Source: Escherichia coli | Lineage (GTDB): Bacteria; Pseudomonadota; Gammaproteobacteria; Enterobacterales; Enterobacteriaceae | Length of the DNA stretch: 64,000 bases | Assembly: GCF_965641715.1 (NCBI RefSeq) | Contig: NZ_OZ282453.1 | Direction: 5' to 3' (one strand) | In this document: one piece after another, positions 19,529-63,128 of the stretch | Layout: each line of letters begins with the position of its first letter | Position numbering within the stretch: the stretch's first letter is position 1 | The notes under the pieces: model-generated | The model's database searches: none | The model's input: only the letters and a program-made list of their open reading frames with translations | What the model was told of the DNA's origin: nothing | Program-made: the position numbers and the translations under genes

Positions 19529-19647
19529 CACACTAATCCGTATCGATTTCGTTATAGAAGCCGATGATCATTTGATTGTGAGAAAAAGGACGCTTTTTAT
19601 ATGTGATTAAAAGCGTCCTGACCCATTTATGCTGATATAAATTTAAC

Positions 19648-53682: not shown

Positions 53683-53955
53683 ATGAATCTTGATGACATT
53701 ATCAACAGCATGACGCCTGAGGTATACCAGCGTTTGTCGACCGCCGTTGAACTGGGGAAATGGCCTGATGGCGTTGCGTTGACCGAGGAACAAAAAGAGA
53801 ACTGCCTGCAACTGGTGATGCTATGGCAAGCCCGCCATAATACCGAAGCACAGCATATGACAATTGACACAAATGGTCAGATGGTCATGAAGAGCAAACA
53901 GCAGTTAAAAGAAGATTTTGGTATCTCAGCAAAGCCTATTGCTATGTTTAAGTAA
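53683..53955 (+). CDS. yeaC: DUF1315 protein YeaC
   Basis: Start set at MNLDDIINSM (90 aa); track ORF begins 15 codons earlier and overlaps msrB. Confidence 0.8.
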   Translation: MNLDDIINSMTPEVYQRLSTAVELGKWPDGVALTEEQKENCLQLVMLWQARHNTEAQHMTIDTNGQMVMKSKQQLKEDFGISAKPIAMFK

Positions 53956-54193
53956 GTGGTTTATCCCCTTTTTGCCGCGGCTATGAAGGGGATAGCCAAC
54001 AATGACCCCACGACTCATCTCAATTATCTCGCCATGACCTGGCTAAGTCCCAGTCCGATCTCTTGCCGTCGCGTTCACGCCTGAATGACTTCTCCTGAAC
54101 TTAAGTCTCAGACCTATTTGGCCGGTAATCCCTCTCAAATTTGCTCATTTTGCGTTCCGCCTTCCATCAACCTGTAACAGAACCAGCCATTTT

Positions 54194-54249
54194 CTGCGTA
54201 ATTGTGATCTGAGTTGTAAAACGCAGATCATTATCTGTGTTTTACAGAT
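54194..54249. promoter_or_regulatory. Candidate operator array upstream of ydjL (repeated ATCTG/CAGAT inverted repeats)
   Basis: CTGCGT(54194)/ACGCAG(54221), TGATCTG(54204)/CAGATCA(54224), ATCTGT(54233)/ACAGAT(54244), 75-130 bp upstream of the ydjL start. Confidence 0.35.
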
Positions 54250-54324
54250 TTAATGTTGACCTCAAAAATCATGTGGGTAAGTATGATGACCATCTAAGCA
54301 AAACAAAACACAGAGGATGACGCA

Positions 54325-55401
54325 ATGAAAGCACTGGCTCGGTTTGGCAAAGCCTTTGGCGGCTACAAGATGATCGATGTGCCACAACCCATTTGTGGCC
54401 CGGAAGATGTAGTGATTGAAATTAAAGCCGCGGCAATCTGCGGCGCAGACATGAAGCACTACAATGTCGATAGCGGTTCTGATGAGTTTAACTCTATCCG
54501 CGGCCATGAGTTCGCAGGTTGTATTGCGCAGGTTGGTGAAAAAGTCAAAGACTGGAAAGTGGGGCAACGCGTCGTGTCGGATAACAGCGGTCACGTCTGC
54601 GGTGTTTGTCCGGCCTGTGAACAAGGTGATTTTCTGTGTTGTACAGAAAAAGTAAACCTTGGTCTGGATAACAATACCTGGGGCGGTGGTTTTTCCAAAT
54701 ATTGTCTGGTTCCTGGTGAAATTCTCAAAATTCATCGTCATGCGTTGTGGGAAATCCCTGATGGTGTTGATTATGAGGACGCAGCCGTACTTGACCCTAT
54801 CTGTAATGCCTACAAATCCATCGCGCAGCAATCGAAATTCCTTCCTGGTCAGGATGTGGTCGTCATCGGCACTGGCCCACTCGGGCTGTTCTCCGTACAA
54901 ATGGCGCGGATTATGGGGGCGGTAAATATCGTTGTCGTTGGTCTGCAAGAAGATGTGGCGGTCCGCTTCCCGGTTGCAAAAGAACTGGGTGCGACGGCAG
55001 TAGTAAATGGTTCTACCGAAGATGTGGTGGCGCGCTGCCAGCAAATTTGTGGCAAAGACAATCTGGGACTGGTGATTGAATGCTCCGGTGCCAATATCGC
55101 ACTTAAACAAGCCATCGAAATGCTCCGCCCAAACGGGGAAGTGGTACGCGTTGGAATGGGCTTCAAACCTCTTGATTTCTCGATTAATGACATTACCGCC
55201 TGGAACAAAAGCATCATTGGGCATATGGCCTATGACTCAACCTCATGGCGTAACGCTATCAGGCTATTAGCCAGCGGCGCTATCAAAGTCAAACCGATGA
55301 TCACGCATCGTATCGGCCTGTCGCAATGGCGCGAAGGGTTTGATGCGATGGTCGATAAAACCGCAATCAAAGTGATCATGACTTACGACTTTGATGAATA
55401 A
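54325..55401 (+). CDS. ydjL: Zn-dependent medium-chain alcohol/polyol dehydrogenase YdjL
   Basis: 358-aa MDR-family ORF with catalytic and structural zinc Cys ligands (GHE...CGVCPACEQGDFLCC). Confidence 0.85.
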   Translation: MKALARFGKAFGGYKMIDVPQPICGPEDVVIEIKAAAICGADMKHYNVDSGSDEFNSIRGHEFAGCIAQVGEKVKDWKVGQRVVSDNSGHVCGVCPACEQGDFLCCTEKVNLGLDNNTWGGGFSKYCLVPGEILKIHRHALWEIPDGVDYEDAAVLDPICNAYKSIAQQSKFLPGQDVVVIGTGPLGLFSVQMARIMGAVNIVVVGLQEDVAVRFPVAKELGATAVVNGSTEDVVARCQQICGKDNLGLVIECSGANIALKQAIEMLRPNGEVVRVGMGFKPLDFSINDITAWNKSIIGHMAYDSTSWRNAIRLLASGAIKVKPMITHRIGLSQWREGFDAMVDKTAIKVIMTYDFDE

Positions 55402-55427
55402 CAACTTTCCTGAAGGAACGTTATCGC

Positions 55428-56807
55428 ATGGAACAGATAACAAAACCGCATTGTGGTGCACGGCTGGATCGCTTACCGGATTGCCGCTGGCATTCGTCAA
55501 TGTTTGCCATCGTCGCGTTTGGCTTGCTTGTCTGCTGGAGTAATGCCGTTGGTGGCTTGATCCTCGCGCAGCTGAAAGCGTTGGGCTGGACAGATAATTC
55601 CACCACAGCCACATTCTCAGCAATCACGACCGCCGGAATGTTTCTCGGTGCGCTGGTGGGCGGCATCATTGGCGACAAAACCGGTCGCAGAAATGCGTTC
55701 ATCCTCTATGAGGCCATTCATATTGCCTCGATGGTTGTCGGTGCTTTCTCACCGAATATGGATTTCCTTATTGCCTGCCGTTTTGTGATGGGAGTTGGGC
55801 TGGGAGCTTTACTGGTTACGCTGTTTGCTGGTTTCACCGAATATATGCCCGGTAGAAATCGTGGAACGTGGTCAAGTCGGGTTTCCTTTATTGGCAACTG
55901 GTCATATCCGCTCTGTTCATTGATAGCGATGGGACTCACGCCGCTGATTAGTGCAGAGTGGAACTGGCGGGTACAACTGCTTATCCCTGCAATATTGTCG
56001 CTTATCGCTACGGCGCTGGCCTGGCGCTACTTTCCTGAATCCCCGCGCTGGCTGGAATCGCGCGGACGGTATCAGGAAGCCGAGAAAGTCATGCGGAGTA
56101 TAGAAGAAGGCGTCATACACCAGACGGGTAAACCTTTGCCGCCCGTGGTTATTGCTGATGACGGTAAAACGCCACAAGCGGTGCCGTATTCAGCCTTACT
56201 GACAGGAGTATTACTGAAACGCGTGATATTAGGCTCTTGTGTGCTGATTGCCATGAACGTTGTGCAGTACACACTAATTAACTGGTTGCCAACGATATTC
56301 ATGACCCAGGGGATTAATTTAAAAGACTCGATTGTTTTAAATACCATGAGTATGTTTGGCGCGCCATTTGGCATTTTTATTGCCATGCTGGTGATGGATA
56401 AAATTCCGCGTAAAACAATGGGTGTGGGGCTATTAATCCTGATTGCGGTGCTCGGATATATCTATTCACTGCAAACCAGTATGTTGCTCATAACGTTGAT
56501 TGGTTTCTTCCTGATTACTTTTGTCTATATGTACGTTTGCTATGCCTCGGCAGTGTATGTCCCTGAGATCTGGCCGACAGAGGCCAAACTCCGTGGCTCC
56601 GGTCTGGCGAATGCGGTAGGGCGAATCAGTGGTATTGCCGCACCTTATGCCGTTGCAGTGCTGCTCAGTAGTTATGGCGTTACGGGAGTCTTTATTCTTC
56701 TGGGGGCGGTTTCAATTATTGTCGCAATTGCTATCGCCACTATTGGAATCGAAACCAAAGGTGTCTCCGTTGAAAGTTTAAGTATTGATGCAGTAGCCAA
56801 TAAATAA
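55428..56807 (+). CDS. ydjK: MFS sugar/metabolite transporter YdjK
   Basis: 459-aa 12-TM ORF with MFS signature (GDKTGRR). Confidence 0.85.
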   Translation: MEQITKPHCGARLDRLPDCRWHSSMFAIVAFGLLVCWSNAVGGLILAQLKALGWTDNSTTATFSAITTAGMFLGALVGGIIGDKTGRRNAFILYEAIHIASMVVGAFSPNMDFLIACRFVMGVGLGALLVTLFAGFTEYMPGRNRGTWSSRVSFIGNWSYPLCSLIAMGLTPLISAEWNWRVQLLIPAILSLIATALAWRYFPESPRWLESRGRYQEAEKVMRSIEEGVIHQTGKPLPPVVIADDGKTPQAVPYSALLTGVLLKRVILGSCVLIAMNVVQYTLINWLPTIFMTQGINLKDSIVLNTMSMFGAPFGIFIAMLVMDKIPRKTMGVGLLILIAVLGYIYSLQTSMLLITLIGFFLITFVYMYVCYASAVYVPEIWPTEAKLRGSGLANAVGRISGIAAPYAVAVLLSSYGVTGVFILLGAVSIIVAIAIATIGIETKGVSVESLSIDAVANK

Positions 56808-56822
56808 TACGGTGGATTCAAA

Positions 56823-57866
56823 ATGAAAAATTCAAAAGCAATATTGCAGGTGCCGGGCACAATGAAAATTATTTCAGCAGAAATACCAGTGCCTAAAGAA
56901 GATGAAGTTTTGATTAAAGTAGAATATGTCGGTATTTGTGGTTCAGATGTACATGGTTTTGAATCAGGTCCGTTTATTCCGCCTAAAGACCCAAATCAAG
57001 AAATTGGCCTGGGTCATGAATGCGCCGGGACGGTTGTGGCTGTGGGAAGCCGCGTGCGCAAATTTAAACCGGGGGATCGGGTAAATATCGAACCTGGCGT
57101 TCCTTGCGGTCACTGTCGTTACTGTCTGGAAGGCAAATATAACATCTGCCCGGACGTTGATTTTATGGCGACACAACCCAACTACCGCGGCGCATTAACG
57201 CACTATCTGTGTCATCCGGAGAGCTTTACTTACAAACTGCCCGACAATATGGACACGATGGAAGGGGCGCTGGTGGAGCCTGCCGCAGTCGGGATGCATG
57301 CCGCGATGCTGGCAGATGTTAAACCGGGTAAGAAGATAATTATTCTGGGAGCAGGTTGTATTGGTTTGATGACGTTGCAAGCGTGCAAATGCCTGGGAGC
57401 AACGGAAATTGCCGTCGTTGATGTGCTGGAAAAACGTCTGGCAATGGCGGAACAGCTTGGTGCGACAGTGGTTATTAACGGCGCAAAAGAAGACACTATT
57501 GCACGCTGTCAGCAATTTACCGAAGACATGGGCGCAGATATTGTTTTCGAAACAGCGGGTTCTGCGGTCACCGTTAAACAGGCACCTTATCTGGTAATGC
57601 GCGGCGGTAAAATTATGATTGTTGGTACTGTACCCGGCGATTCGGCAATCAATTTCCTCAAAATAAATCGCGAAGTTACTATCCAGACGGTATTCCGCTA
57701 CGCCAATCGTTATCCGGTCACGATTGAAGCTATTTCTTCAGGGCGATTCGATGTGAAATCGATGGTGACGCATATTTACGATTATCGGGATGTACAACAG
57801 GCATTTGAAGAGTCAGTTAACAATAAACGCGACATTATTAAAGGCGTTATTAAGATTAGCGATTAA
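56823..57866 (+). CDS. ydjJ: Zn-dependent sorbitol/threonine-dehydrogenase-like enzyme YdjJ
   Basis: 347-aa MDR ORF (CGSDVHGF..., CGHCRYCLEGKYNIC). Confidence 0.85.
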   Translation: MKNSKAILQVPGTMKIISAEIPVPKEDEVLIKVEYVGICGSDVHGFESGPFIPPKDPNQEIGLGHECAGTVVAVGSRVRKFKPGDRVNIEPGVPCGHCRYCLEGKYNICPDVDFMATQPNYRGALTHYLCHPESFTYKLPDNMDTMEGALVEPAAVGMHAAMLADVKPGKKIIILGAGCIGLMTLQACKCLGATEIAVVDVLEKRLAMAEQLGATVVINGAKEDTIARCQQFTEDMGADIVFETAGSAVTVKQAPYLVMRGGKIMIVGTVPGDSAINFLKINREVTIQTVFRYANRYPVTIEAISSGRFDVKSMVTHIYDYRDVQQAFEESVNNKRDIIKGVIKISD

Positions 57867-57886
57867 TTAATACGGGAGAACAGAAC

Positions 57887-58723
57887 ATGCTCGCAGATAT
57901 CAGATATTGGGAAAACGATGCCACAAATAAACGTTATGCTATTGCCCATTTTAATGTATGGAATGCAGAAATGTTGATGGGCGTTATCGACGCAGCCGAA
58001 GAAGCGAAATCACCGGTTATTATTTCTTTTGGCACAGGTTTTGTCGGCAACACCTCATTTGAAGATTTCTCTCACATGATGGTATCAATGGCACAAAAAG
58101 CAACGGTGCCGGTAATAACTCATTGGGATCATGGTCGGAGTATGGAGATTATTCATAACGCCTGGACTCATGGGATGAATTCATTAATGCGTGATGCTTC
58201 CGCATTTGATTTCGAAGAAAATATTCGTTTAACCAAAGAGGCTGTTGATTTTTTCCATCCGCTGGGTATTCCGGTAGAGGCGGAATTAGGGCATGTCGGT
58301 AATGAAACCGTTTATGAGGAAGCTCTGGCGGGCTATCACTATACCGATCCTGACCAGGCGGCTGAATTTGTTGAACGTACGGGCTGTGACTCATTGGCTG
58401 TCGCCATCGGCAACCAGCATGGGGTTTATACGTCAGAGCCACAATTGAACTTTGAGGTCGTCAAACGCGTACGCGATGCCGTGTCTGTTCCGCTGGTTTT
58501 GCATGGCGCATCGGGGATCAGTGATGCCGACATTAAAACTGCAATTTCGTTGGGTATCGCGAAAATCAACATCCATACGGAGCTCTGTCAGGCCGCAATG
58601 GTCGCAGTGAAAGAAAACCAGGATCAGCCTTTCCTGCATTTAGAACGTGAAGTACGTAAAGCTGTAAAAGAACGGGCATTGGAAAAAATTAAACTGTTCG
58701 GTTCTGATGGCAAAGCGGAATAA
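57887..58723 (+). CDS. ydjI: Class II (metal-dependent) fructose-bisphosphate-aldolase-family protein YdjI
   Basis: 278-aa ORF of the FbaA/GatY/KbaY family. Confidence 0.85.
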   Translation: MLADIRYWENDATNKRYAIAHFNVWNAEMLMGVIDAAEEAKSPVIISFGTGFVGNTSFEDFSHMMVSMAQKATVPVITHWDHGRSMEIIHNAWTHGMNSLMRDASAFDFEENIRLTKEAVDFFHPLGIPVEAELGHVGNETVYEEALAGYHYTDPDQAAEFVERTGCDSLAVAIGNQHGVYTSEPQLNFEVVKRVRDAVSVPLVLHGASGISDADIKTAISLGIAKINIHTELCQAAMVAVKENQDQPFLHLEREVRKAVKERALEKIKLFGSDGKAE

Positions 58724-58727
58724 TGAT

Positions 58728-59675
58728 ATGGATAATCTCGACGTTATTTGTATAGGTGCCGCTATTGTTGATATTCCATTGCAACCGGTCAGTAAAAATA
58801 TCTTTGATGTGGATTCTTATCCTCTTGAAAGAATCGCAATGACCACCGGGGGTGATGCAATAAATGAAGCAACAATTATTTCTCGTCTGGGCCATCGCAC
58901 AGCATTAATGAGTCGTGTTGGTAAAGATGCCGCAGGGCAGTTTATTCTCGACCATTGCCGCAAAGAGAATATTGATATTCAAAGCCTGAAACAGGACGTC
59001 AACATAGATACCTCTATTAACGTAGGACTGGTGACGGAGGATGGCGAGCGGACGTTTGTCACAAACCGTAACGGCAGTCTGTGGAAATTGAATATTGACG
59101 ATGTTGATTTTGCGCGGTTTTCTCAGGCGAAATTATTATCACTGGCCAGTATTTTCAACAGTCCACTATTAGATGGTAAAGCGCTAACAGAAATTTTTAC
59201 GCAAGCTAAAGCCCGGCAGATGATTATCTGTGCCGATATGATCAAACCGCGGTTGAATGAAACGCTGGATGATATTTGCGAAGCATTGAGTTATGTCGAT
59301 TATCTGTTTCCTAATTATGCCGAGGCAAAATTACTCACCGGGAAAGAGACACTGGATGAAATTGCTGACTGCTTTCTTGCGTGCGGCGTAAAAACGGTGG
59401 TGATTAAAACGGGTAAAGACGGCTGCTTTATCAAGCGTGGTGACATGACGATGAAGGTGCCGGCGGTCGCAGGAATAACCGCCATCGACACCATTGGCGC
59501 GGGCGATAACTTTGCTTCAGGTTTTATTGCGGCACTGTTAGAAGGCAAAAATCTGCGTGAATGCGCACGCTTTGCCAATGCAACGGCGGCTATCTCGGTT
59601 CTAAGCGTCGGTGCCACCACCGGCGTAAAAAACAGAAAGCTGGTCGAACAATTGCTGGAAGAATACGAAGGATAA
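58728..59675 (+). CDS. ydjH: PfkB/ribokinase-family sugar kinase YdjH
   Basis: PfkB C-terminal motif (GAGDNFASGF); start set at MDNLDVICIG (315 aa). Confidence 0.85.
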   Translation: MDNLDVICIGAAIVDIPLQPVSKNIFDVDSYPLERIAMTTGGDAINEATIISRLGHRTALMSRVGKDAAGQFILDHCRKENIDIQSLKQDVNIDTSINVGLVTEDGERTFVTNRNGSLWKLNIDDVDFARFSQAKLLSLASIFNSPLLDGKALTEIFTQAKARQMIICADMIKPRLNETLDDICEALSYVDYLFPNYAEAKLLTGKETLDEIADCFLACGVKTVVIKTGKDGCFIKRGDMTMKVPAVAGITAIDTIGAGDNFASGFIAALLEGKNLRECARFANATAAISVLSVGATTGVKNRKLVEQLLEEYEG

Positions 59676-59684
59676 TGAAGGCAA

Positions 59685-60665
59685 ATGAAAAAGATACCTT
59701 TAGGCACAACGGATATAACGCTTTCGCGAATGGGTTTGGGGACATGGGCCATTGGCGGCGGTCCTGCATGGAATGGCGATCTCGATCGGCAAATATGTAT
59801 TGATACGATTCTTGAAGCCCATCGTTGCGGCATTAATCTGATTGATACTGCGCCAGGATATAACTTTGGCAATAGTGAAGTTATCGTCGGTCAGGCGTTA
59901 AAAAAACTGCCCCGTGAACAGGTTGTAGTAGAAACCAAATGCGGCATTGTCTGGGAACGAAAAGGGAGTTTATTCAACAAAGTTGGCGATCGGCAGTTGT
60001 ATAAAAACCTTTCCCCGGAATCTATCCGCGAAGAGGTAGAAGCCAGCTTGCAACGTCTGGGTATTGATTACATCGATATCTACATGACGCACTGGCAGTC
60101 GGTGCCGCCATTTTATACGCCGATCGCTGAAACTGTCGCAGTGCTTAATGAGTTAAAGGCTGAAGGGAAAATTCGCGCTATAGGCGCTGCTAACGTCGAT
60201 GCTGACCATATCCGCGAGTATCTGCAATATGGTGAACTGGATATTATTCAGGCGAAATACAGTATCCTCGACCGGGCAATGGAAAACGAACTGCTGCCGC
60301 TATGTCGTGATAATGGCATTGTGGTTCAGGTTTATTCCCCGCTAGAGCAGGGATTGTTGACCGGCACCATCACTCGTGATTACGTTCCGGGCGGCGCTCG
60401 GGCAAATAAAGTCTGGTTCCAGCGTGAAAACATGCTGAAAGTGATTGATATGCTTGAACAGTGGCAGCCACTTTGTGCTCGTTATCAGTGCACAATTCCC
60501 ACTCTGGCACTGGCGTGGATATTAAAACAGAGTGATTTAATCTCCATTCTTAGTGGGGCTACTGCACCGGAACAGGTACGCGAAAATGTCGCGGCACTGA
60601 ATATCAACTTATCGGATGCAGACGCAACATTGATGAGGGAAATGGCAGAGGCCCTGGAGCGTTAA
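59685..60665 (+). CDS. ydjG: Aldo-keto reductase YdjG
   Basis: 326-aa AKR-family ORF. Confidence 0.85.
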   Translation: MKKIPLGTTDITLSRMGLGTWAIGGGPAWNGDLDRQICIDTILEAHRCGINLIDTAPGYNFGNSEVIVGQALKKLPREQVVVETKCGIVWERKGSLFNKVGDRQLYKNLSPESIREEVEASLQRLGIDYIDIYMTHWQSVPPFYTPIAETVAVLNELKAEGKIRAIGAANVDADHIREYLQYGELDIIQAKYSILDRAMENELLPLCRDNGIVVQVYSPLEQGLLTGTITRDYVPGGARANKVWFQRENMLKVIDMLEQWQPLCARYQCTIPTLALAWILKQSDLISILSGATAPEQVRENVAALNINLSDADATLMREMAEALER

Positions 60666-60687
60666 ATACTCAACACGATTCACCTCT

Positions 60688-60722
60688 GTTTCTGTGAAAA
60701 CTGTGATGAAAATCTGTGATTC
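60688..60722. promoter_or_regulatory. Three direct CTGTGA repeats upstream of ydjF (candidate DeoR/CRP-type operator)
   Basis: CTGTGA at 60692, 60701 and 60714 in the ydjG-ydjF intergenic region, 80-110 bp upstream of the ydjF GTG start. Confidence 0.3.
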
Positions 60723-60801
60723 AAACAGGTTATTTTGAAAGTAAACATCGGTTATGCGATAATCGTGCTAATGTGATGTAAAAAGATACAGGGGTGTAAT
60801 C

Positions 60802-61560
60802 GTGGCGGCAAAAGACAGGATTCAGGCAATTAAGCAAATGGTTGCCAACGATAAAAAGGTGACAGTCTCAAATTTGAGTGGGATTTTTCAGGTAACCGAA
60901 GAAACCATTCGCCGCGATCTTGAGAAGCTGGAAGATGAAGGCTTTTTGACCAGAACTTATGGTGGTGCTGTTTTAAATACAGCGATGTTGACGGAGAATA
61001 TTCATTTTTATAAGCGCGCTTCATCGTTTTATGAAGAGAAGCAGCTTATTGCACGCAAGGCACTACCCTTTATCGACAATAAAACCACCATGGCAGCCGA
61101 TTCCAGTAGTACCGTAATGGAATTGCTCAAATTGTTACAGGACCGTAGTGACCTGACGTTGCTAACCAACTCGGCGGAAGCGATTCATGTTCTGGCTCAG
61201 TCAGAAATTAAAGTCGTTTCAACGGGTGGGGAACTAAACAAAAATACACTTTCACTGCAAGGAAGAATTACTAAAGAGATCATCAGCCGCTATCATGTCG
61301 ATATCATGGTAATGAGTTGTAAAGGTCTTGATATTAACAGCGGCGCGCTGGACTCTAATGAAGCGGAAGCTGAAATCAAAAAGACAATGATCCGTCAGGC
61401 GACAGAAGTTGCGTTATTGGTTGATCACTCTAAGTTTGATCGCAAAGCTTTTGTCCAGTTAGCTGACTTTAGTCATATTAATTACATAATAACTGATAAA
61501 TCACCGGGTGCAGAGTGGATAGCATTTTGCAAAGACAATAATATCCAGCTGGTGTGGTAA
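60802..61560 (+). CDS. ydjF: DeoR-family transcriptional regulator YdjF (GTG start)
   Basis: 252-aa ORF with N-terminal DeoR HTH and C-terminal sugar-phosphate-binding domain. Confidence 0.85.
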   Translation: MAAKDRIQAIKQMVANDKKVTVSNLSGIFQVTEETIRRDLEKLEDEGFLTRTYGGAVLNTAMLTENIHFYKRASSFYEEKQLIARKALPFIDNKTTMAADSSSTVMELLKLLQDRSDLTLLTNSAEAIHVLAQSEIKVVSTGGELNKNTLSLQGRITKEIISRYHVDIMVMSCKGLDINSGALDSNEAEAEIKKTMIRQATEVALLVDHSKFDRKAFVQLADFSHINYIITDKSPGAEWIAFCKDNNIQLVW

Positions 61561-61677
61561 TTTAAGCACACGTTGTCAATATTATTTGTTCCTGCGCCTG
61601 GAAATAAAATGATGATAAAGATGCGGCAAGTGAATTTGCCGCAATTGCTACCTTTTTTAGCAAATCCGAGGCACCCA

Positions 61678-63036
61678 ATGGAACAATATGATCAAATTGG
61701 CGCAAGACTGGACCGCTTGCCTTTGGCCCGGTTTCATTATCGTATATTTGGTATTATAAGCTTTAGTCTGTTATTAACAGGGTTTTTGAGTTACTCCGGT
61801 AATGTCGTCTTAGCAAAGCTGGTAAGCAATGGATGGTCAAATAATTTCCTCAATGCCGCCTTTACCTCGGCATTAATGTTTGGTTATTTCATCGGCTCTC
61901 TTACCGGTGGGTTCATCGGTGATTACTTTGGGCGGCGCAGGGCGTTTCGCATAAATCTTCTCATCGTCGGTATTGCTGCAACAGGGGCCGCTTTTGTCCC
62001 TGATATGTACTGGCTCATCTTCTTTCGCTTCCTGATGGGAACAGGAATGGGGGCGCTGATTATGGTTGGCTATGCCTCATTTACGGAGTTTATCCCCGCG
62101 ACGGTGCGTGGAAAATGGTCCGCGCGGCTCTCATTTGTTGGTAACTGGTCGCCCATGCTGTCTGCGGCGATAGGTGTGGTGGTTATCGCTTTTTTTAGTT
62201 GGCGGATAATGTTTCTGTTGGGTGGTATTGGCATACTGTTAGCCTGGTTTCTCTCAGGTAAATACTTTATCGAGTCGCCACGATGGCTGGCAGGGAAAGG
62301 GCAAATCGCAGGTGCAGAATGCCAACTTCGTGAAGTAGAGCAGCAAATTGAAAGAGAGAAGAGTATTCGTTTACCCCCGCTTACTTCGTATCAGAGCAAC
62401 AGCAAGGTTAACGTAATCAAGGGTACTTTCTGGCTCCTGTTTAAAGGTGAAATGTTACGACGTACATTAGTCGCGATTACTGTTTTAATTGCAATGAACA
62501 TTTCGCTTTATACCATCACCGTATGGATACCGACCATATTTGTTAACTCCGGCATTGATGTCGATAAATCAATATTAATGACCGCTGTTATTATGATTGG
62601 CGCTCCGGTAGGAATATTTATTGCGGCATTAATTATTGATCATTTTCCTCGTCGGTTATTTGGCTCCACCTTACTTATTATTATTGCCGTGTTAGGCTAT
62701 ATCTATTCAATTCAGACTACAGAGTGGGCGATTTTAATCTATGGCCTGGTGATGATCTTCTTTTTATACATGTATGTTTGCTTCGCGTCGGCGGTTTATA
62801 TCCCGGAGCTTTGGCCAACGCATTTACGCCTGCGCGGTTCGGGTTTCGTTAATGCCGTCGGACGGATCGTCGCAGTCTTCACGCCCTATGGCGTTGCGGC
62901 ATTATTAACACATTATGGGTCGATCACGGTGTTTATGGTGCTTGGTGTTATGTTAGTGCTCTGTGCGCTGGTTCTCTCTATTTTTGGCATCGAAACGCGG
63001 AAGGTGTCGTTGGAAGAGATTTCTGAGGTGAATTAA
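61678..63036 (+). CDS. ydjE: MFS transporter YdjE
   Basis: 12-TM MFS paralogous to YdjK (same GDxxGRR motif); start set at MEQYDQIGARL (452 aa), track ORF begins 35 codons earlier. Confidence 0.8.
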   Translation: MEQYDQIGARLDRLPLARFHYRIFGIISFSLLLTGFLSYSGNVVLAKLVSNGWSNNFLNAAFTSALMFGYFIGSLTGGFIGDYFGRRRAFRINLLIVGIAATGAAFVPDMYWLIFFRFLMGTGMGALIMVGYASFTEFIPATVRGKWSARLSFVGNWSPMLSAAIGVVVIAFFSWRIMFLLGGIGILLAWFLSGKYFIESPRWLAGKGQIAGAECQLREVEQQIEREKSIRLPPLTSYQSNSKVNVIKGTFWLLFKGEMLRRTLVAITVLIAMNISLYTITVWIPTIFVNSGIDVDKSILMTAVIMIGAPVGIFIAALIIDHFPRRLFGSTLLIIIAVLGYIYSIQTTEWAILIYGLVMIFFLYMYVCFASAVYIPELWPTHLRLRGSGFVNAVGRIVAVFTPYGVAALLTHYGSITVFMVLGVMLVLCALVLSIFGIETRKVSLEEISEVN

Positions 63037-63128
63037 ATCTTTCGTTGATGGCATCAATTGCCAGATGTGCCACTGACGTGTTTTATTTGGCCTACAATGC
63101 CAGTACAGAATTGTAGGCCAGCGTAAAA

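Follow-up and report, generated by a model that had tools for sequence, protein, structure and literature searches.

A putative tandem operator array for the DeoR-family regulator YdjF upstream of ydjL in Escherichia coli

The ydj operon of Escherichia coli encodes an orphan pathway of the sugar-acid type. We examined the DNA upstream of its first gene, ydjL, in a stretch of 64,000 nucleotides from contig NZ_OZ282453.1 (the window), where an initial annotation had described three interleaved inverted repeats with a shared ATCTG/CAGAT core at 54194–54249 and had proposed them as a candidate binding region for the regulator YdjF. On the + strand, msrB and yeaC (which ends at 53955) are followed by a 369-bp spacer and by ydjL (54325–55401), ydjK, ydjJ, ydjI, ydjH and ydjG, and then, after a gap of 136 bp, by ydjF (60802–61560), which encodes a protein of the DeoR family, and ydjE. 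The repeat block lies 76–131 bp 5' of the ydjL ATG (54325), or roughly −97 to −42 relative to the predicted start of transcription. The region is 100% identical to that of E. coli O78 strain NZ_CP084096, and the K-12 sequence is identical from 54183 to 54288. The ydjL promoter shows no activity in culture and becomes active in the mouse gut, and the promoter of the ydj operon was among the most consistent 'healthy gut' triggers of a biosensor screen (PMC6561318). Our analyses suggest that the block is probably the upstream part of the control region of ydjLKJIHG, that is, an operator array at which cooperative, GlpR-like repression by YdjF would be combined with activation by CRP; YdjF, the DeoR/GlpR-family regulator encoded in the cluster itself, is the most likely protein to bind it.

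All three inverted repeats are present upstream of ydjL. TCTGCGT (54193–54199) and ACGCAGA (54221–54227) are complementary at 7 of 7 positions, TGATCTGAGTT (54205–54215) and AACGCAGATCA (54220–54230) at 10 of 11, and TGTAAAACGCAGAT (54215–54228) and ATCTGTGTTTTACA (54233–54246), which are separated by 4 nt, at 13 of 14. The block also holds the inverted pair ATCTGT (54233–54238) and ACAGAT (54244–54249), and its four ATCTG/CAGAT cores (54207, 54224, 54233 and 54245) alternate in orientation. Whether such an arrangement exceeds chance, as had been supposed, depends on what is counted. Clusters of four alternating copies of a 5-mer within 56 bp occur twice in the window, where dinucleotide shuffles lead one to expect about 0.58 per 64 kb, and this pattern by itself carries no significance. 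In contrast, the motif core TCTGTG-N3-CACAGA, which was derived from other taxa (see below), has two matches in the window with at most one mismatch against 0.13 expected, and none of 100 shuffles gave two or more. Inverted repeats with 14-nt arms likewise occur twice in the window and in none of 12 shuffles. The only one outside the block with such arms and at most one mismatch, AGGACGCTTTTTATATGTGATTAAAAGCGTCCT at 19587–19619, is probably a terminator.

The repeat motif is conserved in orthologous promoters. We retrieved the ydjL loci of 58 genomes; the alignment with the window took in 24 proteobacterial upstream regions at first and 30 later. TCTGTG/CACAGA was the top hexamer in an unbiased k-mer count, being found in 13 of 26 upstream regions from outside Escherichia where 1.5 were expected (z 9.6). 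An unseeded expectation-maximization motif search converged on poly-A runs and was replaced by k-mer enrichment and a seeded, symmetrized position weight matrix (PWM), trained without Escherichia. The resulting consensus, ATCTGTG-WWW-CACAGAT, is a 17-bp palindrome (ATCTGTG-N3-CACAGAT) with the two-fold symmetry of an operator for a dimeric helix-turn-helix protein. Its mirrored half, CACAGAT, emerges even when the sites are aligned on one half alone, and perfect palindromes are found in Serratia, in Enterobacillus and at an actinobacterial locus (L037).

The spacing of the sites is conserved as well. Of 29 pairs of neighbouring sites, drawn from 19 taxa, 19 are spaced by exactly 20 or 21 bp, close to two turns of the helix, while shuffled sequences contained about 0.1 such pairs per set and never reproduced the observed phasing; the sites form a tandem array of putative operators in helical phase, like that of GlpR. 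The layout is repeated in the Firmicutes, with two upstream sites and a third over the −35 element, and in Caproiciproducens the ydjF site directly adjoins the −10 element TATAAT.

The motif also co-occurs with YdjF. The ydjF product is a genuine DeoR-family protein (HTH_DeoR PF08220, 2.9e-17; DeoRC PF00455, 2.4e-49), whose only match of solved structure is a deoxyribose operon repressor (7l6l, E 4.6e-10), and orthologues were found at 56–88% identity. Eight of these (59–88% identical) could be traced to contigs, from Salmonella, Citrobacter, Serratia, Enterobacillus, Agarivorans, another proteobacterium, Caproiciproducens and Anaerostipes, and every one is encoded within a ydjL...ydjG-ydjF cluster, in genomic contexts that are otherwise unrelated. 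Sequences of the type AATCTGTG(A/T) stand 5' of both ydjL and ydjF in all eight contexts; the motif is upstream of both genes in all nine of the genomes in which both regions could be read, each of them bearing ydjF, and it is carried by further Firmicute ydjL loci and by one Atopobiaceae locus. This presence in every YdjF-containing cluster examined, across three phyla, gives comparative support to the proposal that the block is a candidate YdjF binding region. Clusters with ydjL and without the motif were sought in Anaerococcus and Enterococcus by exact-protein look-up, which gave no matches. The putative recognition helix, TEETIRRDL, is invariant in 12 of 12 orthologues, including Megamonas P0108, and is uninformative about motif variants; at locus L040, apparently on the same contig as Megamonas P0108, the sites read ATGTTTA...TAAACAT.

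Within the E. coli block, the motif resolves into four registers, O3 to O0 (Table 1). O1, centred at about −50 from the predicted start, is the best PWM match in the 64 kb, the runner-up reaching 15.9 bits, and it is the window's only match to ATCTGTGNNNCACAGAT with two or fewer mismatches. O2 has a good right half (CGCAGAT) and a poor left half; its register scores 7–13 bits in Klebsiella, Serratia and locus L065. In E. coli its sequence is close to that of O1 inverted (by eye, 14 of 17 positions match), which explains the 14-nt repeat, and because a tandem array of palindromes shares one half-site, additional inverted repeats arise between neighbours. The three nested repeats therefore do not form a unit: the rightmost pair, ATCTGT/ACAGAT, is the one that stands as a complete predicted operator (O1), whereas the 14-nt and 11-nt repeats result from complementarity between the half-sites of adjacent elements. 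At O3 the likeness to the motif is limited to the left half, and the register is confined to Escherichia, although C. farmeri and C. amalonaticus show partial similarity; the leftmost pair, CTGCGT/ACGCAG, shows no conservation outside Escherichia, its CTGCGT arm falling beyond the conserved block. The array itself is thus upheld but not its limits at 54194–54249, since it continues over the −35 element and to a site within ydjL. Klebsiella has 7, 20 and 12.5 bits at its equivalents of O2, O1 and O0, and there O0 has the same right half, TAAAGATT, as O1. A candidate operator that overlaps the predicted −35 element scores 8 bits in the E. coli promoter, against 12.5 for Klebsiella and 16.9 for Anaerostipes (AATGTTTGACTCACAGAAA); the TTGA of that element may bias the PWM. 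A possible Fur site, ATCATTATC at 54227–54235, was rejected as a 9-nt partial match that falls at variable positions between O2 and O1.

Table 1. Putative operators and promoter elements of the ydjL and ydjF control regions. Coordinates are those of the window; pi is the mean pairwise diversity per element over 31 proteobacterial promoters.
Feature	Coordinates	Strand	Sequence	PWM score (bits)	pi	Remarks
O3	54191..54209	no strand	TTTCTGCG-TAA-TTGTGATC	−1.5 (local maximum)		possible fourth, weakest register; left half 5.7 bits; 20 bp 5' of O2
O2	54211..54229	no strand	GAGTTGTAAAACGCAGATC	2.5 (local maximum)	0.32	weak operator; exactly 21 bp 5' of O1
O1	54232..54250	no strand	TATCTGTGTTTTACAGATT	20.7	0.14	main operator; core ATCTGTG-TTT-TACAGAT at 54233–54249
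O0	54252..54270	no strand	AATGTTGACCTCAAAAATC	8.1–8.3 (PWM may partly reward the TTGA of −35 itself)		weak register overlapping −35; 20 bp 3' of O1
CRP-like 22-mer	54200..54221	no strand	AATTGTGATCTGAGTTGTAAAA			contains GATC 54206–54209; overlaps left half of O2
Most conserved promoter element			TTGTGATC		0.02	
ydjL −35 (predicted)	54256..54261	+	TTGACC		0.11	TTGAC nearly invariant in the 31 promoters
ydjL −10 (predicted)	54279..54284	+	AAGTAT		0.19	17-bp spacer
Promoter spacer					0.42	
Leader					0.40	
ydjL third codon positions					0.46	
O_int	54631..54649	no strand	TTTCTGTGTTGTACAGAAA	15.9		ydjL codons 103–109; 399 bp from O1 centre
O1F	60711..60729	no strand	AATCTGTGATTCAAACAGG	10.6		
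O0F	60731..60749	no strand	TATTTTGAAAGTAAACATC	10.5		covers −35 of ydjF promoter
ydjF promoter −35	60735–40		TTGAAA			
ydjF promoter −10	60758–63		GATAAT			

Conservation around the block is discrete and non-uniform. Nothing could be aligned between genera 5' of approximately 54200 (pi 0.67) because the neighbouring genes differ, and the conserved region begins at TTTGTGATCT. The operator motif is the promoter's strongest phylogenetic footprint apart from TGTGATC and the −35 element. A sigma-70 promoter, TTGACC-17-AAGTAT, is predicted with a start near 54291, approximately K-12 position 1861366; its −10 element matches the consensus at 3 of 6 bases and was missed by a consensus scan, and more distant taxa have AATTAT, AATGAT or GATAAT in this position at a spacing of 17–18 bp. 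Further downstream, AAAACACAGAGGATGA (54305–54320) lies over the ydjL Shine–Dalgarno sequence and repeats the left half of O1 (TCTGTGTTTT) in inverted orientation; its AAACACA is conserved in most enterics, without covariation, and the element could be a further half-site or a mask of the ribosome-binding site in a long leader.

TGTGATC is probably a CRP half-site. Of 30 orthologous proteobacterial promoters, 29 contain it and the remaining one has TGTGACC, while all 16 non-proteobacterial ones lack it; it lies 53 bp 5' of the −35 element in all but one of the 29 promoters in which the distance could be measured, that one having 54 bp. It thus combines the fixed distance of a class I CRP site with a restriction to taxa that bear CRP, and from a start at 54291–2 its site would be centred at about −80.5 to −81.5, compared with the canonical −82.5. 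The left half, TGTGATCT, matches the CRP consensus perfectly, while the right half reads TTGTA in E. coli (2 of 5 bases) and TTGTG, CTGTG or CTGCG elsewhere; second halves of comparable weakness are found in functional CRP sites, for example at malT and araBAD. Two GATC sites for Dam, one nearly invariant (54206–54209) and one partly conserved (54226–54229), lie 20 bp apart inside the putative CRP and YdjF sites, and their protection from methylation by a bound protein is conceivable.

A further palindrome, O_int, lies inside ydjL and is the second-best PWM match in the 64 kb; apart from O1, it is the only site in the window that fits TCTGTG-N3-CACAGA with one mismatch or none. Among 31 proteobacterial ydjL orthologues (76–90% nucleotide identity), it falls in the 7-codon windows with the lowest synonymous diversity in the gene (ranks 1 and 2 of 349), where third-position pi sums to 0.51 and 0.69, the mean for the gene being approximately 3.2. 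The sole synonymous change that is tolerated there, TGT to TGC, perfects the palindrome. O_int is absent from the ydjL genes of Firmicutes. Given the match and the codon constraint, we regard it as a candidate auxiliary operator for a DNA loop. Another palindrome-like match within ydjL, at 54436–52 with three mismatches, is free of synonymous constraint and was treated as chance.

The motif reappears at the promoter of ydjF, where O1F and O0F lie 20 bp apart and the ATCTGTG stands 23 nt from the −35 element, exactly as in the ydjL promoter. By score alone, these two sites are not significant in 64 kb (ranks 11–12), but the motif is conserved 5' of ydjF in eight other taxa, which suggests autoregulation. 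Direct repeats of CTGTGA occur three times 5' of the E. coli ydjF promoter (60692, 60701 and 60714), and only the third, in O1F, is conserved elsewhere. The same spacer also holds, just after the ydjG stop, an arm CACCTCTGTTT (60677–60692) of anti-Shine–Dalgarno type, whose complement spans the ribosome-binding site and GTG start of ydjF (60786–60802); from seven proteobacterial sequences, RNAalifold predicts a stem in the ydjG–ydjF spacer with compensatory change in five pairs. Because the ydjF promoter sits between the two arms, such a stem would silence only the read-through mRNA of the operon.

The mechanism that we infer begins with YdjF occupying the strong O1 when no inducer is present. 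From there it would spread cooperatively onto the weak O2 (about −71) and onto O0 over the −35 element, so that the array would exclude RNA polymerase, block the −35 element and compete with CRP, while the copy inside ydjL (about +350) may stabilize the complex through looping. An intermediate of the pathway, by analogy with the family a sugar phosphate, would release YdjF, whereupon cAMP-CRP (cyclic AMP with its receptor protein) bound at the TGTGATC half-site (centre about −81) would activate the intrinsically weak TTGACC-17-AAGTAT promoter. Through the similar pair of sites at its own promoter, YdjF would regulate itself.

The same sites could in principle serve an activator, YdjF recruiting RNA polymerase from about −50 and −71 in the presence of inducer much as FucR, another member of the DeoR family, does, although we consider this unlikely. 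The position of O1, centred near −50 and just 5' of the −35 element, would suit it, the weak −10 element (AAGTAT, 3/6) suggests a promoter that plausibly needs help, and expression that is off in culture and on in the gut fits an inducible repressed operon and an activator model equally. However, weaker registers overlap the −35 element at both promoters, the Caproiciproducens ydjF site abutting −10 and the 16.9-bit Anaerostipes site over −35 occupy positions typical of repressors, and an intragenic auxiliary site suits a repression loop; most characterized members of the DeoR family are repressors. It seems improbable that CRP or another global regulator, rather than YdjF, binds the block and that the ATCTG/CAGAT repeats are its degenerate half-sites. 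In favour of this stands TGTGATCT, which is a perfect CRP left half and the most conserved element and which, with a single exception among the promoters, lies 53 bp from −35, and the outer ATCTG...CAGAT in its 17-bp frame recalls the box of the GntR-family regulator FadR (ATCTGGTACGACCAGAT), itself a 17-bp palindrome with these outer bases. Yet the motif is found equally in the Firmicutes and an actinobacterium, which lack TGTGATC, as well as at the ydjF promoter, whose TGTGA varies between species, and its half-sites are separated by N3 as opposed to the N6 of CRP. As for FadR, the inner bases of the ydj motif are TGTG/CACA and not the defining TGGT/ACCA, the motif travels with YdjF in the Firmicutes, and no fatty-acid genes are adjacent, and we therefore rejected a FadR box.

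We give very little credence to a role of the repeats in RNA, whether as a terminator or attenuator hairpin or as a stem hiding the ribosome-binding site in a long leader that starts inside yeaC. A scan does flag 54214–54247 as terminator-like, and 54228–43 in E. coli is able to pair with 54305–20 over the Shine–Dalgarno sequence. Moreover, a ydjL leader has been cloned from window position 53848, inside yeaC (CATAAT lies 7 nt upstream; 53836–53848), and Rho-dependent termination was found early in ydjL, with a strong Rho region (score 20.7) at K-12 position 1861188, approximately window 54469, 144 nt into the gene (Adams et al.); transcription from upstream thus seems insulated from the operon. 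Nevertheless, the fold of the block is unremarkable (z −1.67; 14 of 200 shuffles fold equally well), Rfam gives no match for it, and among the 15 pairs of the 54214–54247 stem 4 are G-C, with a poor U tract behind it. Over 30 orthologues, three candidate stems have 79, 70 and 168 broken pairs against 6, 5 and 17 compensatory ones, no Term-seq 3' end was detected at ydjL (Adams et al.), and the conserved proximal promoter would leave the block untranscribed. The block does not have the features expected of an intrinsic terminator or attenuator, and it behaves as conserved sequence, not conserved pairing. Hardly any weight attaches to the idea that the repeats have no function, being chance or residual conservation after a recent horizontal transfer. 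That about 0.6 clusters of four alternating 5-mers are expected per 64 kb, that about 20% of E. coli genomes lack the ydj cluster, a mobile island, and that the block is no less polymorphic within the species than the spacer as a whole would all agree with it; against it, conservation is discrete, with the spacer and leader near the neutral level, and the motif recurs both at a second promoter of the same cluster and, with strict 20–21 bp phasing, in unalignable promoters of other phyla.

Several observations weigh against YdjF repression from an operator array. In E. coli only O1 is strong, whereas O2 (2.5 bits), O0 (8 bits) and the sites of the ydjF promoter (about 10.5 bits) are individually unremarkable, and the right half of the CRP-like site is poor. 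Variation among seven E. coli strains is no lower in the block (5 of 56 positions) than in the spacer (29 of 369). In the O157:H7 genome (L073), GA is replaced by TG at the equivalent of 54247–54248, which turns the right half of O1 from ACAGAT into ACATGT, and the main operator may be weaker in that lineage; the same genome also carries a C to T change at 54229. The pairing of YdjF with this operator derives from sequence comparison, and YdjF is listed as uncharacterized among the transcription factors of E. coli K-12. The main site is centred near −50, a frequent position for activators, relative to a start that is itself predicted, the sole start in the literature lying far upstream inside yeaC. 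Finally, the PWM was seeded with the consensus, and the promoters used for training may share ancestry with that of E. coli.

The ydjLKJIHGFE cluster (53956–63100) is an accessory island: some 1094 of 5422 complete E. coli genomes match the query only at its yeaC end, and in the one cluster-lacking E. coli genome that was inspected (L068) pncA directly follows yeaC. YdjL shares 76–85% identity with proteins from gut Firmicutes and from an actinobacterium, implying horizontal transfer. In Citrobacter and Klebsiella (L004–L018), approximately 2 kb separate yeaC from ydjL, a space that in C. farmeri (L061, 1408–3171) carries genes for an HNH protein and a GH18 glycosyl hydrolase; the 245 bp specific to E. 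coli at 53956–54200 may be a remnant of this region. With this history in mind, a wider reading may be put forward tentatively, although we doubt it more than we favour it: the YdjF operator code would have been kept from Firmicutes to E. coli along with the mobile island, and the Proteobacteria would have added the O_int loop and an anti-Shine–Dalgarno stem at ydjF. The loop, from O1 to an O_int under synonymous selection some 399 bp away, would encircle the Rho termination zone of yeaC read-through, and the stem would silence ydjF translation on read-through mRNA, uncoupling the supply of repressor from induction.

Regardless of how these readings are resolved, a predicted operator and promoter with mutable bases make the question of what induces this orphan pathway, and by way of which regulator, experimentally direct. 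The motif, shared across phyla, allows regulons to be predicted in gut Firmicutes, and the site within ydjL would be a clean example of regulatory information constraining synonymous codons. The switch proposed here is of an ordinary kind for a sugar operon. As the initial annotation had surmised, the motif appears to be undescribed: literature searches for YdjF sites, for chromatin immunoprecipitation–exonuclease (ChIP-exo) data and for CRP control of ydjL found none, nor any paper on other regulation of ydjL, RegPrecise, RegulonDB and EcoCyc being outside their scope, and no description of such a switch for this gut-induced E. coli pathway was found in the literature searched.

Among known systems, glpFK provides the closest model in outline: four operators stand in tandem in this GlpR-controlled operon, CRP sites overlap two of them, and the one nearest the promoter lies over its core (PMC4117983). 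The ydj system resembles it in having a regulator of the DeoR/GlpR family, a catabolic operon, putative tandem operators and a CRP-like site that overlaps O2. The GlpR operator, a palindrome of roughly 20 bp, is repeated head to tail, and Yang and Larson are said to have described in 1996 extra glpD operators inside the coding region that act by looping. The half-sites differ, however, being ATCTGTG in ydj and of the ATGTTCG type in GlpR, and E. coli ydjL has one strong predicted site, placed 5' of −35 rather than over −10 or +1. DeoR itself belongs to the same protein family and also has palindromic operators (TGTTAGAA-TTCTAACA). The deo operators O1, O2 and OE are distant, act cooperatively through looping and are co-regulated with CRP; they lie hundreds of bp apart, in contrast to the 20–21 bp tandem array of ydj. 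GATCs free of methylation have been reported within CRP sites and where GutR, a regulator of the DeoR family, binds, and the possible likeness to these Dam-protected sites (gut/srl and CRP sites) consists of the two ydjL GATCs inside putative regulator sites. In the lac operon, the operator palindrome likewise appears again some 400 bp 3', inside the first structural gene (+401 in lacZ, 399 bp in ydjL), and looping to this auxiliary operator raises the local concentration of repressor. LacI belongs to a different family, and the site inside ydjL is proposed from its sequence match and synonymous constraint. As a whole, these comparisons would extend the GlpR/DeoR paradigm to another member without overturning current ideas.

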